Of a DNA stretch of 24,080 nt, positions 1-6,330 are shown in pieces. The stretch comes from a virus. Lineage: Duplodnaviria > Heunggongvirae > Uroviricota > Caudoviricetes. The position numbers were made by a program, and so were the translations under genes. Location: IMG/VR virus record IMGVR_UViG_3300028025_004880; one strand, 5' to 3'. The first letter of the stretch is position 1, and every line of letters starts with the position of its first letter. Under the pieces are notes generated by a model. The model did no database searches. It was not told the origin of the DNA and was given only the letters and a program-made list of their open reading frames with translations.

Positions 1-66
1 GATTATGAAGGGATAAAACGACTTTATAATTGGAGAATGGGGTCGGGTCTGAAAAAGGCGCTCTAG
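1..66 (+). CDS. 3' end of an upstream gene (partial, DYEGIKRLYNWRMGSGLKKAL*)
   Basis: Frame 1 is open from the window edge to TAG at 64-66, followed by a hairpin and T-run. Confidence 0.4.
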   Translation, partial: DYEGIKRLYNWRMGSGLKKAL

Positions 67-82
67 ACCCCAATCTCTTTTT
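33..82 (+). terminator. Possible intrinsic terminator
   Basis: GAGAATGGGGTC (33-44) pairs 11/12 with GACCCCAATCTC (66-77), with an alternative GGGTCT/AGACCC stem. TTTTT follows. The loop is long. Confidence 0.4.
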
Positions 83-167
83 CTTCTTCCTATAAGTCGT
101 ATATCAAAGGACTACAACTGTAAAGGCACTCTGGCTGGATCTGGTCTATACTAAGGGTACCAGATAT

Positions 168-196
168 TTGACCCATGTTCAGAGTGCTTTTATAAT
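168..196 (+). promoter_or_regulatory. Sigma70-type early promoter
   Basis: TTGACC (168-173), 17 nt spacer, TATAAT (191-196). Confidence 0.65.
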
Positions 197-258
197 TGGA
201 GTTCCAGAAAAAAATCCTGCAAAATTTTTTGTATCGCTGGAAGTCGCAATAGATTTAA

Positions 259-287
259 TTGACATTTATTCACACTACAGGTATAAT
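259..287 (+). promoter_or_regulatory. Sigma70 consensus early promoter
   Basis: TTGACA (259-264), 17 nt spacer, TATAAT (282-287). ATG at 294. Confidence 0.85.
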
Positions 288-293
288 GAACGC

Positions 294-476
294 ATGGATA
301 TAATACTCACTCTATTTGCTTTGAGCAGTTCTTCTTGGGCACTTGAACCCTCACGTCCGATCACTGAGAATGCACTAGTGTATAAGTATAAGGTATATGA
401 GGAAACCGATCCCCATAAAGATATGTACTCACCTGATTGGATATATAAAAATGACCAAAAAGAAACTAAAAATTGA
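294..476 (+). CDS. Small hypothetical protein with hydrophobic N-terminus (60 aa), possibly leaderless
   Basis: ATG 6 nt after the -10 box; MDIILTLFALSSSSWALEPSR. In frame with track ORF 168..476, whose TTG start is the -35 box of another promoter. Confidence 0.5.
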   Translation: MDIILTLFALSSSSWALEPSRPITENALVYKYKVYEETDPHKDMYSPDWIYKNDQKETKN

Positions 477-681
477 ATTTGCCCCAGGATGCTTCGATAA
501 CTTCGATGGCACTCAGGAAGAATTAGACTCACTCATTGCTCAGCTTACACAGCAAGTGGAGAGTGGAGAACTCATGGAGAAGTCTACCCCTGTTGATTGG
601 GATAACCTTGACGATGAAACCCGAGCCAAGTTGGAAGCATGGGATGAGGGTAATGATGGCGATTCTAGGAGTCTACAATGA
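451..681 (+). CDS. Hypothetical acidic protein
   Basis: Track ORF 397..681, more likely started at ATG 451 (MTKKKLKIEFAPGCFD). Stop overlaps the next start (ATGA). Confidence 0.7.
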   Translation: MTKKKLKIEFAPGCFDNFDGTQEELDSLIAQLTQQVESGELMEKSTPVDWDNLDDETRAKLEAWDEGNDGDSRSLQ

Positions 682-932
682 GTTACGCACGATGGGGTGA
701 AAGTTCATGGTATGCCTTTGTAAGCGTACGTGGTGAATTAGAGATGTGGCGTTCCATTGATGAGGAAGGTCGTCTATGCTATTCTCTTGGATATTGTAGA
801 GAATTTTTATGCCAAGATGCCCCTAGACAGCAAATGGAAATATGCGAAGCCACAGGGTGTGGACCCGAAGAGGCGCAAGAAGCAATAGGTTTTATAAAAC
901 GATTCGTAAAGGAGCAAGGCTATGAAGTTTGA
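678..932 (+). CDS. Hypothetical protein
   Basis: 84-aa ORF coupled to its neighbours by overlapping stop/start codons. Confidence 0.65.
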   Translation: MSYARWGESSWYAFVSVRGELEMWRSIDEEGRLCYSLGYCREFLCQDAPRQQMEICEATGCGPEEAQEAIGFIKRFVKEQGYEV

Positions 933-1278
933 ACCATGGGGCTACCACCTAATGGCTAACCTGAAAGGGTGTAATGATAACGTGAAGGATGAGGAAGCAA
1001 TTCTTGCCTTCAATACCGATGTGGTGGCAGCTGCAGAAATGATTGCCCATGGTGAGCCAGTGGTCACTTACTTCGGTGAACTGGGTGAGAAGAATGGTTA
1101 TACACTGCAACAACTCATTACCACGTCCTCACTTACAGTGCACTTCTGTGATGATGGTAAGGTGTTCTTTGATCTATTCTCTTGTAAGAAATTCAATGAA
1201 GATGCCGTTCTTGGTTGTCTTCACTATTACTTCCATCCTAGCGATCTAGATTACGATGTCATTGAACGAGCAATTTAG
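922..1278 (+). CDS. speD: Pyruvoyl-dependent S-adenosylmethionine decarboxylase (SpeD/SpeH)-like proenzyme
   Basis: WGYHLMANLKGC N-terminus, GEKNGYT, putative self-cleavage site ITT|SSLTVHF, DLFSC with the catalytic Cys, 118 aa. Confidence 0.8.
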   Translation: MKFEPWGYHLMANLKGCNDNVKDEEAILAFNTDVVAAAEMIAHGEPVVTYFGELGEKNGYTLQQLITTSSLTVHFCDDGKVFFDLFSCKKFNEDAVLGCLHYYFHPSDLDYDVIERAI

Positions 1279-1717
1279 TCAGGATATAGTGGAATGGATC
1301 GATGCGTTAAGTGCGCCTAATGATGCGTTGGGTGGCATGTCAGTATGCCCCTTCGCAAAAAGAGCCAAGTTCAGCGTGGTCCATGTGAATGGCGAGGTGG
1401 CTGTTCCTGAGAATTTAAACTTTGAGTTGGTGATTTATGTGTTCCCTGATTCGTTGAGTCAGGAACATCTACATGTAATGGCAACGGATCTAAACGCAAC
1501 CCATCCTGAGATGGTGTTCCTTCCTGACCACAAGGATCGAGTTACTCATATTAATGGTGTTGTCACCAACAACGGCAAACATAACCTTCTCCTCTGTCAA
1601 CCTAAGTATAAGTTAAGAGATGCACGTGCTGCTCTCCGACGCACCAGTTATTATTCCCACTGGGATGAGCAATATTTAAAAGAGATACTTGGAGAAGACT
1701 ATGGCAATATGGACTGA
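1256..1717 (+). CDS. Hypothetical protein, DUF1415-like (W..L..P....G...CPFA motif)
   Basis: VEWIDALSAPNDALGGMSVCPFAK, later LPDH and YYSHW. The family resemblance is by eye only. Confidence 0.5.
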   Translation: MSLNEQFSQDIVEWIDALSAPNDALGGMSVCPFAKRAKFSVVHVNGEVAVPENLNFELVIYVFPDSLSQEHLHVMATDLNATHPEMVFLPDHKDRVTHINGVVTNNGKHNLLLCQPKYKLRDARAALRRTSYYSHWDEQYLKEILGEDYGNMD

Positions 1718-2777
1718 GTACGATCCGCTAACTGAAATCATTGTTGGCACCTGTCCCCCTGAAGATTATTATGACAATGTCATTACCGATGAGCGCAGTC
1801 TTCCGCTACTACACACAATTCTAAAAGAAACACGGGAAGATCTCGATGCCCTTTCGCTTCAACTAGAAGCCATGGGTGTAAAGGTTCATCGTCCCAGAAA
1901 CTTACCCTTCGAACGTAAGATACAGTTGGCAGGGTTTAACATAAACAATCCTGTTGCACCAATCGTACCACGTGATCAATACATGGTCTATGGTGAGAAG
2001 ATTGTTCAAACCTACACCAGCATGCCCGATCGTTATCTAGAGTCGTTGGCTTACTATGATATATTCCGTGAACTGTTTGAACAGGGATTTGATTGGTGCA
2101 GTATGCCACCGCCATTGCTTGAAAACTTTGCCGACAATAGCATGTGGTACAGTGATTCAGTGGGTCGCTATCATAACATACTTGCCGATCGTTTGCTATG
2201 GCACACCGCCACCATGTTCAAGTGTGGCGATGCTCTCATTACCAACACCAAAGGTCCAGGTAATAATCTCGGTCTAGAGTGGATGCGGAGACAGTTCCCC
2301 GATGCACGTATCCTAGAAAACAAAGGCACTGTTCAAGAAAACCTTGGACACATTGACCATGGTTGGTTCATGACAGATGACAATACCGTGTTCGCCGAGA
2401 AAGAATTTTGGGCACCCTACTATCTAAAGGGTAAGGAAATTATCTATCTACATGACGTGGTCGATACACCTGACTTTGCTCAATATGATAGTGCGTTGAC
2501 ACAGTCCACTGGTAAGTTTTCCTACGATTATCTAAATATATGGATGAGCGAGTGGAAGGGTTACATTCAAGAAGTTGCCTTTGACTTCAATGTGCTAGTG
2601 GTTGACAGTAAAAATATTTTCATTAGTAATGCGCAACCAAAGCTACAGGAGATGCTGGATAAACGTGGCATTACTTGTCATATAGCACCCATTCGTCATA
2701 ATCATTTTTGGGATGGTGGTATACACTGTCTCACACTAGATGTTAAACGAAACGGAAACCGTAGAAAGGTAGTATAA
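1701..2777 (+). CDS. Amidinotransferase (glycine/inosamine-phosphate amidinotransferase family, pentein fold)
   Basis: EYDPLTEIIVG, PRD, NNLGLEWMRR, GHID, NVLVVD, GGIHCLTLDVKR. SD GGAGA lies before ATG 1701. Confidence 0.88.
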   Translation: MAIWTEYDPLTEIIVGTCPPEDYYDNVITDERSLPLLHTILKETREDLDALSLQLEAMGVKVHRPRNLPFERKIQLAGFNINNPVAPIVPRDQYMVYGEKIVQTYTSMPDRYLESLAYYDIFRELFEQGFDWCSMPPPLLENFADNSMWYSDSVGRYHNILADRLLWHTATMFKCGDALITNTKGPGNNLGLEWMRRQFPDARILENKGTVQENLGHIDHGWFMTDDNTVFAEKEFWAPYYLKGKEIIYLHDVVDTPDFAQYDSALTQSTGKFSYDYLNIWMSEWKGYIQEVAFDFNVLVVDSKNIFISNAQPKLQEMLDKRGITCHIAPIRHNHFWDGGIHCLTLDVKRNGNRRKVV

Positions 2778-2778
2778 A

Positions 2779-3480
2779 ATGTGGATAGATTCTGATAGAT
2801 ATAAACATGAGAACGTGCTAGAGGAACTCACACGCAGATTGATGTTAGATCTTAAGAATCTGCGTGCCACTGGCTATGATCCAGAAAAGAGTGCGTGTCA
2901 AATTTTAAAGTTTGAGTATTCCGATGTGTATCCTGAGTTAAGTAATGCGACTGATGTTGAGTATCACAAACCTGAACAGTTTAGCGATAAGCCAAACCCA
3001 AGAGAAATATGGTATGCTGAAGCACTTTATCTTGATGGTGAACTACATGAACGATTCAAACCCAATTGGCCATTGACCTCTGAGTACGTTGATAAAATTC
3101 CTGGACTGCTTCAAATGATTGTTAACTTTATAAAACCAGGAGGAGTGCTTCCTTACCATGACGATCGTGGTGGATGGGAACGCATTGATACATGGACAGG
3201 TGATCTTCAGCGTGGCTTCACAGTTTCTATTGGTGTTGATATTCCCACCGATGACCCTGCAATTTGTGGCTTAGAATTCGAGGGTGAACGCAGAGGATGT
3301 CGTACTGGTGAGTGGGTAATATTTGAGGGTAGAAACTTTCATCACAACTGTTGGAATCATTCGAATGGTTGGCGCATTGCAGGTGTCGTAGATATAAAAG
3401 CATCGGAGTTTAATCTAGAAGGATACGAAGAAAAGTTAAATGCTGTTTGGAAAAAAGAGGCACTTCTCTATGTTCGTTGA
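2779..3480 (+). CDS. Aspartyl/asparaginyl beta-hydroxylase-family 2OG-Fe(II) oxygenase, paralog 1
   Basis: NFIKPGGVLPYHDD (HxD) and FEGRNFHHNCWNHSNGWR (distal His and 2OG-binding Arg). Confidence 0.8.
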   Translation: MWIDSDRYKHENVLEELTRRLMLDLKNLRATGYDPEKSACQILKFEYSDVYPELSNATDVEYHKPEQFSDKPNPREIWYAEALYLDGELHERFKPNWPLTSEYVDKIPGLLQMIVNFIKPGGVLPYHDDRGGWERIDTWTGDLQRGFTVSIGVDIPTDDPAICGLEFEGERRGCRTGEWVIFEGRNFHHNCWNHSNGWRIAGVVDIKASEFNLEGYEEKLNAVWKKEALLYVR

Positions 3481-4072
3481 TCCTAAAAATTATAAACACT
3501 ACGATATGTTAGTGAAGATGGCAGATGCACTTAAACTTGATTACGATGAGTTTATCGTTGACCATCCTGATCCGAGAAAACATGTCTGCGTATTTAAGTT
3601 TGAGTATCCAGAATTAGAATCTCAGAAACTAGACTATGAAGATGACTGGTGGGCAGTTCCTATTTTCGTTGATGGACAAATTGACAACACAATGTATCCG
3701 AATCATTGGTTAAGAACAAAGGCGATTACTCAAACATTACCTGGACTCTATCAACAAATCATTAACTTCATTCGTCCCAATGGTGGTAAGCTACCATGGC
3801 ACAATGACTTCGGTTCGTGGGAAAGAATTGGTCAACACTTCCCAAACCCAAAGGGATATACTGCTGCCATTGGCATTGATATGCTTGAGCCCATCGATAC
3901 TGAGAAGCAAGGTATACAATTTGGTGATGACATTCGTTCCTATGTCAACAAAGAAATTACTGCCTTCGATGGTAGAAATTATGCACACTACGTATGGAAC
4001 TTATGCGACGCATGGCGAGTGAGCAGTGTTATAGACCTGTCCGAGAAGGAGTGGAATAATGTGGTTGGGTGA
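3470..4072 (+). CDS. Asp/Asn beta-hydroxylase-family 2OG-Fe(II) oxygenase, paralog 2
   Basis: NFIRPNGGKLPWHND and FDGRNYAHYVWNLCDAWR. GAGG SD lies before ATG 3470, and the N-terminus (MFVDPKNYKHYD) matches the paralogs. Confidence 0.8.
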   Translation: MFVDPKNYKHYDMLVKMADALKLDYDEFIVDHPDPRKHVCVFKFEYPELESQKLDYEDDWWAVPIFVDGQIDNTMYPNHWLRTKAITQTLPGLYQQIINFIRPNGGKLPWHNDFGSWERIGQHFPNPKGYTAAIGIDMLEPIDTEKQGIQFGDDIRSYVNKEITAFDGRNYAHYVWNLCDAWRVSSVIDLSEKEWNNVVG

Positions 4073-4628
4073 TCCCCTACAATATAAGCACTACGATCAA
4101 CTACAAAAGTTGATGCAGTGTATGCTAGAAGATTATGCTGAGTGGAAACTAAAGTATGACATCGACAGTAAGTGTGTCGATGCTGCTACACGTTATGAGA
4201 TGCCACCAGAAAATGCCAATGGCTTTATGGCACTGCCAATAATTGACGCAAGAAAAGTTCAACAGCCATGGGCTGATGGATGGGAAAGAACAGTTGCGCA
4301 AGCATACGAATGCCCAGGAATGATTGATATGTGTATAAATTTTATTCGTCCTGGAAAAATGTTACCAGTGCATCATGATGGTCATGTTTGGTCATGGATA
4401 CGTGGGAGCATGGGAAAACACGTAGAAGGGTTTACTACTTCTTTTGGTATACACATCCCCGATCCAACAAATCAATGTTTAGTGTTTGATGGCGAATCCA
4501 AAGTTTGGAACACTGGTGAGTTTCGAACATTTAATGGTGAGTTCACACAGCACTACATGAAGAATCTTGGAAGTGACTGGCGTATCACTGGTGTCATGGA
4601 AATCGAGAAAGAGCACTACGTTCTATAA
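4059..4628 (+). CDS. Asp/Asn beta-hydroxylase-family 2OG-Fe(II) oxygenase, paralog 3
   Basis: NFIRPGKMLPVHHD and FNGEFTQHYMKNLGSDWR. Confidence 0.8.
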   Translation: MWLGDPLQYKHYDQLQKLMQCMLEDYAEWKLKYDIDSKCVDAATRYEMPPENANGFMALPIIDARKVQQPWADGWERTVAQAYECPGMIDMCINFIRPGKMLPVHHDGHVWSWIRGSMGKHVEGFTTSFGIHIPDPTNQCLVFDGESKVWNTGEFRTFNGEFTQHYMKNLGSDWRITGVMEIEKEHYVL

Positions 4629-4647
4629 CCCTACACTTTGTAGGGGT
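4627..4647. repeat. Operator-like palindrome AACCCTAC-N5-GTAGGG(G)T, copy 1
   Basis: AACCCTAC actt t GTAGGGGT, ending 11 nt upstream of the -35 box at 4659. Confidence 0.65.
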
Positions 4648-4658
4648 TTAAATAATCC

Positions 4659-4687
4659 TTTACTTTAATTATGATTGAGAGTATAAT
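4659..4687 (+). promoter_or_regulatory. Sigma70-type early promoter (TTTACT class)
   Basis: TTTACT, 17 nt spacer, TATAAT (4682-4687). ATG at 4694. Confidence 0.8.
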
Positions 4688-4693
4688 AGTCTT

Positions 4694-4984
4694 ATGATAG
4701 ATAAAATGTTTGCACCTACTTTTGAATGGATTCGTAATGATTGGAAATCTAACAAACCTCGTTTCATCGTTGAACTTCTTGCTTGGGCTATTAGTATTGG
4801 GTGCAGTATCACTATGGCTGTTACTGTTCCCTCTCCGCCACTACTTGCTTTATATCCTGTCTGGATTACTGGTTGCGCTATGTATGCTTGGGCTAGTTAT
4901 ACTCGGAAATCGTTTGGCATGTTGGCTAACTACATCTTGCTAACTGCTATCGATACGTTTGGTTTGATCCGTATGATTATGTAA
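4694..4984 (+). CDS. Small integral membrane protein (about 3 TM)
   Basis: Three hydrophobic segments: FIVELLAWAISIGCSITMAVTV, LLALYPVWITGCAMYAWASY, FGMLANYILLTAIDTFGLIRMIM. Confidence 0.75.
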   Translation: MIDKMFAPTFEWIRNDWKSNKPRFIVELLAWAISIGCSITMAVTVPSPPLLALYPVWITGCAMYAWASYTRKSFGMLANYILLTAIDTFGLIRMIM

Positions 4985-4993
4985 GGAAGTAAT

Positions 4994-5461
4994 ATGAGTG
5001 TTGTTCGTTTCATTGAAAATGTGAGTAAGTCCGATGTGGCATCTGGTATGCATATGGACGCAGGAACAAACTCTATGCTCATTCGCATTCAAGATCCCGC
5101 AACCTTTTTTGGTTGCGTCAAATATCCCTTCAAAGAAGTTTATCAATTTGAATTTTTAGATGCTGAAGACAACGATCCCTATGAGGATGAATGTAAAATT
5201 TCCGATGAGCAAGCTGATCAGCTTGTGAAACTTCTGCGTCGCGCACTTGATAAGCACATGAATGTAGTTGTTCAATGTCATGCTGGTATTTGTCGCAGTG
5301 GTGCCGTTGTCGAAGTTGCTGAGATGATGGGCTTTACTCCCACCGATCGCTATCGTCAACCCAACCTACGTGTTAAACATAAGATGATGAAAGTTTTAGA
5401 ATGGACATATGACTTAGATTCATGTCGTCCTTCCCACCCCGAGTATGGAGATTTAAAATGA
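4994..5461 (+). CDS. Protein tyrosine/dual-specificity phosphatase-fold protein
   Basis: CX5R P-loop VVVQCHAGICRSGA. Confidence 0.8.
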   Translation: MSVVRFIENVSKSDVASGMHMDAGTNSMLIRIQDPATFFGCVKYPFKEVYQFEFLDAEDNDPYEDECKISDEQADQLVKLLRRALDKHMNVVVQCHAGICRSGAVVEVAEMMGFTPTDRYRQPNLRVKHKMMKVLEWTYDLDSCRPSHPEYGDLK

Positions 5462-6330
5462 AAGTAGCACTTTGTTCTGATGTGCATTTAGAGTTTGGTC
5501 AATTGGTATTGGAGAATACAGAAAATGCGCACGTCCTTATTTTGTCTGGTGATATTTGTGTGGCTCGCGACCTCATGCTTCCCGACCCCCATAATATTGT
5601 GGACTTTGGAAAGTCTAAGCGGTATCATGAGTTTTTCAGCAACTGTGCTAGTAACTTTCCTCACGTGGTTTATATTGTTGGTAACCACGAGCACTATCAT
5701 GGTGATTTTGCTGATACGATTCCTCACCTCAGGAAATGTCTTGGACACCTTACGAACCTTCACATCCTCGATAAAGAAACAGTTAAGATTGACGACATAA
5801 CATTTATCGGTGGTACATTGTGGACTGACATGAATAAGGAAGATCCATTGACACTTCATGGAATTCGTAGAATGATGAACGACTTCCGTTGTGTTGAAAA
5901 CAGTAATCGTGTTGTTAACTTTAAATCGTACGATGATCCTGAGAATCCAGATCACCCAACATTCAGAACTCGAGCAGCAGTATTCTGTCCAGAAGATGCT
6001 GTTGAAGATCACAAGAAAATGTTAGACTACATTAAAACTGTTGTTGAGGGTAAACATGATGATAAGTTTGTTGTGGTTGGACACCACACTCCGAGTCACA
6101 AGAGTTGTCATCCAAAATATAGCGATGATCAAATAATGAATGGTGGATATCATAGCGATCTAAGTGAGTTTATTATGGATCGCCCACAGATTAAACTATG
6201 GACACATGGTCATACGCATGAGTTGTTTGATTATATGATTGGCGATACACGTGTTGTTTGTAATCCAAGAGGATATATAAACTACGAAAAACTTGCAGAC
6301 ACTTTCCTTTTAAAGTACATCGAGGTATAA
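5458..6330 (+). CDS. Calcineurin-like metallophosphoesterase
   Basis: SDVHLE, LSGDI, GNHEHY, GHHTPS, HGHTH, NPRGY. SD GGAG lies before ATG 5458. Confidence 0.88.
   Translation: MKVALCSDVHLEFGQLVLENTENAHVLILSGDICVARDLMLPDPHNIVDFGKSKRYHEFFSNCASNFPHVVYIVGNHEHYHGDFADTIPHLRKCLGHLTNLHILDKETVKIDDITFIGGTLWTDMNKEDPLTLHGIRRMMNDFRCVENSNRVVNFKSYDDPENPDHPTFRTRAAVFCPEDAVEDHKKMLDYIKTVVEGKHDDKFVVVGHHTPSHKSCHPKYSDDQIMNGGYHSDLSEFIMDRPQIKLWTHGHTHELFDYMIGDTRVVCNPRGYINYEKLADTFLLKYIEV

Follow-up and report, generated by a model that had tools for sequence, protein, structure and literature searches.

Enzymes that install or oxidise guanidine groups are known from bacterial natural-product pathways and not from phage infection. 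In the hsv pathway to phevamine A, HsvA (PDB 5wpi) amidinates spermidine using arginine (PMC6187163), and in argolaphos biosynthesis AglA (PDB 9ub3), of the YqcI/YcgG family, is a haem-thiolate guanidine N-hydroxylase with its ligand Cys44 near the N-terminus (PMC12866846). Phage homologues of SpeD are common in aquatic phages, with activities which include S-adenosylmethionine decarboxylase (AdoMetDC), arginine decarboxylase (ADC) and ornithine decarboxylase (ODC) (PMC9992855, PMC10407285); these papers on phage polyamine enzymes make no mention of linkage to an amidinotransferase, while a cyanophage paper that names phage amidinotransferases files them under 'antibiotic synthesis genes', without analysis. 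Here we describe a block of six genes at positions 922-4628 of a 24,080-nucleotide stretch of DNA (the window) from an uncultured virus of the Caudoviricetes (IMG/VR record IMGVR_UViG_3300028025_004880), in which a pair of overlapping genes, one for a short protein with a CPFA motif (the CPFA protein) and one for an amidinotransferase-family enzyme, is accompanied by a SpeD-like decarboxylase and three 2-oxoglutarate (2OG)/Fe(II) oxygenases. We found no paper describing this gene module. In our estimate the chances are about evenly balanced that the block is an early-expressed phage biosynthetic operon which turns arginine- and ornithine-type precursors into a small oxygenated amine with a guanidine group, and a small molecule is its most likely product.

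The window is a section of a T4-like myophage, with genes for gp32, the gp59 loader, PhoH, MazG, endolysin and prohead protease 3' of the block. In a megablast search of 50,697 phage records the block had no match and so no close cultured relative. The initial annotation had described the six genes as one coupled operon which lies behind strong early promoters at 168 and 259 and ends at a palindrome near 4627, and had named among them an AdoMetDC-like gene, an amidinotransferase and three 2OG-Fe(II) hydroxylases. The list of open reading frames (ORFs) places all six genes where that annotation had them, on the plus strand, and the operon, its promoters and its terminal palindrome were all recovered:

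168-196 and 259-287, plus strand: promoter-like sites of the sigma-70 type, with 11/12 (168) and 12/12 (259) consensus matches
922-1278, plus strand: SpeD-like pyruvoyl-dependent decarboxylase, class 1b AdoMetDC fold (PF02675; phrog_3125), with an AAGGAG ribosome-binding site
1256-1717, plus strand: CPFA protein, 153 aa, with the VCPFAK motif at residues 30-35 (phrog_10325)
1701-2777, plus strand: amidinotransferase-family enzyme with a predicted Cys-His-His centre, homologous to HsvA, StrB1, AGAT and SxtG
2779-3480, plus strand: Hyd1, AspH-type 2OG/Fe(II) oxygenase, paralogue 1 (PF05118, E 2.8e-10)
3470-4072, plus strand: Hyd2, AspH-type 2OG/Fe(II) oxygenase, paralogue 2, 33% identical to Hyd1 and with the same HxD...H...R
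4059-4628, plus strand: Hyd3, AspH-type 2OG/Fe(II) oxygenase, paralogue 3, 30% identical to Hyd1 and with the motif residues kept
4624-4650, plus strand: hairpin with 12-nt arms (83% complementary) and a 3-nt loop, overlapping the last stop codon of the block

The junctions between the six genes are, in order, a 23-nt overlap, a 17-nt overlap, a 1-nt gap, an 11-nt overlap and a 14-nt overlap, where the 11-nt overlap presumes that Hyd2 starts at ATG 3470. The Hyd2 ORF opens at 3440, and ATG 3470 is the likelier start, with which the N-terminus fits the MW.D..YKH of its paralogues. Similarly, the amidinotransferase ORF opens at TTG 1689 and the N-terminal alignment of its homologues favours ATG 1701. 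The sites at 168 and 259 rank as the two best promoter-like matches within positions 1-5600. The hairpin was not called by a terminator scan because it has no long T run, and a further promoter-like site, at 4659, lies directly past it. With consensus promoters, overlapping or abutting genes and a terminal hairpin, 922-4628 is therefore read as one early transcription unit.

The amidinotransferase-family enzyme is homologous over its full length to solved enzymes in the PDB, namely HsvA (phmmer E 3.7e-25), StrB1 (4.9e-23), AGAT (2e-20) and SxtG (3e-19), and a profile of its family reached E-values from 3.8e-36 (HsvA) to 7e-25 in the same database. Residue conservation was taken from an alignment of a phage family of 19 members. 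The nucleophile Cys343, in GGIHCLT, is invariant in all of them and aligns with AGAT C407 (G-x-HC-x-T); also invariant, and aligned to AGAT, StrB1 and HsvA, are His217-Ile-Asp219 (AGAT H303, D305) and the guanidine-binding Asp92 (PRD; AGAT D170). However, the position of the triad Asp (D254 in AGAT and D179 in StrB1, both numbers counted from the alignments) is occupied in all three profile alignments by an invariant histidine, His168 (LWHTAT), and a second invariant His follows the HID motif. Judged from these alignments the enzyme would have a Cys-His-His in place of a Cys-His-Asp centre. Since one defining feature of the family failed we call it amidinotransferase-like, with a rebuilt centre, and plain amidino transfer is therefore not assured. 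The annotation as an amidinotransferase stands with regard to homology, Cys343, HID and Asp92, but not with regard to the triad Asp. HsvA shares with it the nucleophile Cys, the HID motif and the PRD Asp, as well as a location in a small amine-tailoring operon, but has the triad Asp in FDAAD where the phage enzyme has its invariant His, lacks the extra His after HID, and is only distantly similar (low identity); the partners in hsv are ATP-grasp ligases, in contrast to the CPFA protein, SpeD and oxygenases of the phage.

A pattern scan of cellular genomes (one genome per species, 185,579 species) gave a lone relative, in a metagenome-assembled genome of Pseudobdellovibrionaceae; the triad position of this protein is likewise His, and there is no CPFA gene next to it. 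The cultured cyanophage S-SCSM2R carries, as ORF266 (L114:5354-8337, ORF266-269), a truncated relative of 297 aa without the middle of the amidinotransferase; the segments at its two ends are shared with the window enzyme, RH..WDGG.HC among them, and the genes after it encode 2OG oxygenases of another family. ORF309 of the same phage was considered as a counterpart and rejected, as it is an enzyme of another type (sugar-cluster), has about 20% identity and is set among glycosyltransferases.

StrB1, the second-best solved relative, is an inosamine-phosphate amidinotransferase, and this raises the possibility that the block acts on the cell envelope (an amino sugar, glycan or lipid), altering the host surface by StrB1-type amidination or by hydroxylation of lipid A or ornithine lipid in the manner of LpxO and OlsC. 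The NCBIfam models of these two enzymes match Hyd1 weakly (E about 0.003), and the more distant S-SCSM2R amidinotransferase is located among glycosyltransferases. These matches are, however, far under the cut-off, the identity of the S-SCSM2R enzyme is as low as about 20%, and there is no glycosyltransferase or sugar-nucleotide gene in the block or among the annotated recurrent neighbour families, so that an envelope target appears distinctly improbable.

Gene contexts were taken from IMG/VR and from one genome scan, with genes called by local hidden Markov models and clustering and neighbours by Pfam. In IMG/VR 26 loci with the amidinotransferase were found and 336 contigs encode a CPFA relative; from the latter 80 loci were fetched. 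Both genes of the pair were present in 44 of these 80 loci, with a usual overlap of 4 nt. AspH-type oxygenases accompany the pair in 39/44 loci, with a mean of 3.3 per locus, while the SpeD subfamily is found in 17 and a class-III aminotransferase in 36, either or both of them being present in 43 of the 44. Radical S-adenosylmethionine (SAM) genes are present in 36/44 and a Trp-halogenase-like gene in 24/44. Loci with SpeD belong to at least five distinct clades of the amidinotransferase and show three arrangements. The 36 CPFA loci without amidinotransferase have the CPFA gene just upstream of the baseplate genes gp25 and gp6, oxygenases in four cases, and neither SpeD nor the class-III aminotransferase in any. 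In 12 of these 36 the CPFA gene has in its vicinity a gene that weakly resembles the C-terminal domain of Arg-tRNA transferase (ATE_C), which suggests a second arginine-linked context of CPFA proteins and would count in favour of an arginine-based pathway.

From this survey we conclude that the pair of overlapping CPFA and amidinotransferase genes forms the conserved core and that SpeD is one of two alternative partners. The survey had been set as the test of a single amine/guanidino pathway, and the genes do not assort independently (43/44 pair loci with an amine-forming enzyme, 39/44 with oxygenases); the co-occurrence of the genes was thus confirmed, whereas the core proved to be the pair, to which SpeD is added in only some loci. 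The block in the window is a compact version of six genes, without the radical SAM, aminotransferase or halogenase genes which are present in most relatives. In loci of the L004-L020 type two further genes, c10 (about 442-470 aa, no Pfam match) and c4 (about 200 aa, short-chain-dehydrogenase-like), are situated immediately upstream of the CPFA gene, and they sit so in most aminotransferase-type loci.

The SpeD homologue (118 aa) passes PF02675 with E 1.3e-12 and 48.5 bits (cut-off 25), in accordance with its annotation as AdoMetDC-like. The Ser/His/Cys set is kept: the processing Ser69, His74 and Cys88 do not vary when the protein is aligned with the canonical SpeD of cyanophage S-SCSM2R and the AdoMetDC of Sinorhizobium phage phiN3. 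However, the homologue does not reach the AdoMetDC equivalog TIGR03330 (24.5 bits against a cut-off of 75.65), and the residues preceding the processing Ser are TTS, as opposed to ES in the canonical form. Its best match in a cultured phage, at 31% identity, is the phiN3 enzyme, a true AdoMetDC which groups with phage ODCs (Li et al., PMC9992855). Because of the failed equivalog and this grouping, ornithine, arginine and AdoMet all stay candidate substrates. With the neofunctionalised phage SpeD enzymes of ODC and ADC activity (PMC9992855, PMC10407285) the window protein shares its size, the class 1b AdoMetDC fold, the T4-like phage background and the Ser/His/Cys residues; it differs from them in the TTS, not ES, before the Ser and in failing the AdoMetDC equivalog model.

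The abundance of SpeD homologues with AdoMetDC, ADC or ODC activity in aquatic phages (PMC9992855, PMC10407285) is what an ordinary auxiliary polyamine metabolism would look like, in which SpeD raises the supply of spermidine, putrescine or agmatine, as is the case for other marine phages, and its neighbours are functionally unrelated passengers. Yet speD is translationally coupled to the CPFA and amidinotransferase genes, the SpeD subfamily beside the pair, which carries an ITTS motif, recurs in several amidinotransferase clades and arrangements, and SpeD is found in 0/36 CPFA loci that lack the amidinotransferase. We therefore hold SpeD with chance neighbours to be a poor and quite unlikely explanation.

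The CPFA protein of the window has no Pfam match even at E up to 10, and sequence searches of the PDB with the single protein and with two profiles gave nothing significant. Its family comprises 525 clusters at 50% identity (E up to 0.001), nearly all of them viral according to the Atlas. Cys31 is invariant in the alignments of both close (A1) and distant (A3) relatives, and a second Cys is variable. A structure model of the protein has a pLDDT (predicted local distance difference test) of 87; Foldseek of this model against the PDB gave no match, and the top and sole outstanding structural match of the protein is AglA. The two differ in length (243 aa in AglA, 153 aa in the CPFA protein) and neither Pfam nor profile-profile comparison links them. 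A direct search of three phage records with PF08892 and PF07209 gave no match, and hhalign of CPFA with 19 YqcI/YcgG sequences of Bdellovibrionota (from 20 fetched loci, L130 being dropped) gave a probability below 1%, which counts against an AglA-like protein; in the same comparison there was only an insignificant local match, of the CPF motif to the C-terminal KCPF of the YqcI/YcgG proteins. Among 40 distant relatives found with the CPFA profile, four match DUF1415 and five DUF6875, while the window protein itself is unmatched, and the Atlas gives a template-modelling (TM) score of 0.81 between CPFA and a viral cluster with DUF1415 in 18% of its members. No literature on the function of DUF1415 was found. 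It is roughly even whether the CPFA protein is a candidate Cys-ligated haem oxygenase with an AglA-like fold, related to DUF1415/DUF6875; that this protein is probably an oxidising enzyme had no place in the initial annotation.

A second CPFA subfamily (L072-L106; L113:5105-5572), about 40% identical, is never found beside the amidinotransferase and lies directly upstream of the baseplate wedge genes gp25 and gp6, in many cases preceded by a gene of weak ATE_C similarity. The cultured cyanomyovirus Synechococcus phage S-SCSM2R holds a member of it as the unannotated ORF100 (L113:5105-5572). A 658-aa ORF (L062:2615-4591), either a real fusion or an assembly artefact, consists of a Trp-halogenase-like flavoprotein and a C-terminal CPFA domain, and Trp-halogenase-like and CPFA genes adjoin in several further loci.

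The three hydroxylases that had been annotated at the end of the block proved to be AspH-type paralogues, mutually 30-33% identical and all with HxD...H...R. Against the PF05118 cut-off of 22.6 bits Hyd1 scores 40.7, with Hyd2 (14.1) and Hyd3 (17.1, E 0.005) below it. Among 37 relatives (Hyd1 numbering) His127 and His189 never vary, and Asp129 and Arg199 hardly do. The AlphaFold2 model of Hyd1 (pLDDT 94.7) is a double-stranded beta-helix with human AspH as its best Foldseek matches (E 4e-9). Common to the phage enzymes and AspH/PF05118 (as well as LpxO and OlsC) are the PF05118 match, the modelled beta-helix and a distal His with an Arg ten residues on; unlike AspH, the phage oxygenases are stand-alone proteins of about 190-230 aa without a tetratricopeptide repeat or membrane part, have the carboxylate ligand of HxD, and occur as three tandem paralogues. 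A cluster of proteins of about 189 aa (c11) is tandemly repeated beside the core pair in L030, L076 and many of the L031-L068 loci. It has no Pfam match and shows by eye H-I-D-G ... P-H-x-I-x-N, so that it may be a divergent cupin oxygenase family; hhalign of c11 with the AspH-type set was not significant.

The resemblance of Hyd1 to AspH, a protein hydroxylase, brings in the decoration of polypeptides, whether ribosomal peptides, virion proteins or host proteins, where the AspH-type enzymes would hydroxylate side chains and the amidinotransferase-like enzyme would remodel Lys, Orn or Arg. In its larger relatives the cluster gains genes for radical SAM and B12-radical SAM enzymes, methyltransferases and Trp-halogenase-like proteins, a typical peptide-tailoring mix, and in S-SCSM2R the truncated amidinotransferase relative and a neighbouring 2OG oxygenase (ORF266 and ORF269) were detected in purified virions, being reported in its virion proteome (PMC12801897). 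On the other hand, the core pair has no conserved precursor-like gene next to it, SpeD-fold enzymes and class-III aminotransferases have free metabolites as their substrates, and the characterised relatives of the amidinotransferase all act on small amines (PMC6187163). We consider a peptide or protein target rather unlikely.

The genes that recur together encode an enzyme forming an amine, an arginine-dependent enzyme handling amidino groups, a probable oxidase and several C-H hydroxylases, and a hydroxylated guanidino small molecule accounts best for this set. In such a pathway the SpeD-like pyruvoyl enzyme would decarboxylate an amino acid to a primary amine, after which the amidinotransferase-family enzyme would move, via Cys343, the amidino group of arginine to that amine, with release of ornithine. 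The CPFA protein, as a Cys-ligated haem oxygenase, would oxygenate the guanidine nitrogen, be it before this transfer or after it, and the three AspH-type oxygenases would hydroxylate carbon positions. Ornithine is at once the by-product of amidino transfer and the substrate of characterised phage SpeD-type decarboxylases and of many class-III aminotransferases, so the partner enzyme, whichever of the two is present, could recycle it to the acceptor amine; if SpeD is an ODC, the released ornithine would feed the first step. The active-looking residues of the amidinotransferase, SpeD and the oxygenases suggest functional enzymes and would favour this pathway, as do the compact operon, the kinship with HsvA, the linkage of the genes (that of SpeD included) and the structural match of CPFA to AglA.

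Several observations weigh against it. The triad Asp of the amidinotransferase is replaced, as described above; the counts of co-occurrence are not independent, because many of the loci belong to related phages; the nearest studied relative of the SpeD homologue, that of phiN3, is an AdoMetDC at 31% identity (PMC9992855); and AspH, the nearest solved fold of the oxygenases, acts on proteins. The amine could also be a side chain for hypermodified phage DNA bases, as with putrescinyl-thymine. General precedent of amine-modified phage bases is all that speaks for this, whereas no base-transfer, kinase or hydroxymethylase gene was found in the window or among the annotated recurrent neighbour families of the 44 loci; the absence of a base-transfer enzyme from the window, already stated in the initial annotation, was confirmed by library scans of the window proteins. 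A DNA target is thus very improbable. Returning to the small guanidino amine, a more specific and only tentative proposal, which we think unlikely to hold in full, is that the CPFA protein and the His-variant amidinotransferase form an undescribed two-enzyme system nearly confined to aquatic phages, in which a re-tooled amidinotransferase would work together with a minimal oxygenase of the haem-thiolate kind to produce or pass on an N-oxygenated (hydroxy)guanidine group, so that N-hydroxyguanidino amines would be made in infection with a dedicated role in host takeover.

The flanks of the block hold additional small genes. Upstream of speD lie:

397-681 and 678-932, plus strand: two small coupled ORFs, the first acidic and the second Cys-rich, between the promoter-like sites and speD

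Neither has a Pfam or PHROG match, and they are kept only in the three closest contigs. Downstream, under the new promoter-like site, are genes for a small membrane protein (4694-4984), a dual-specificity/protein tyrosine phosphatase (PTP)-like phosphatase (4994-5461; its Pfam matches are slightly under the cut-off) and a metallophosphoesterase (5422-6330), all of them kept in the closest contigs.

The core pair, with its altered catalytic centre, is widespread in uncultured aquatic phages (44/80 fetched loci), and the window carries the smallest and cleanest version of the system, without radical SAM enzymes, which makes it suited as a construct for product discovery. The identity of the product would give a function to a large unannotated phage gene family (525 clusters at 50% identity) and would also explain the arrays of AspH-like oxygenases in freshwater and marine T4-like phages.

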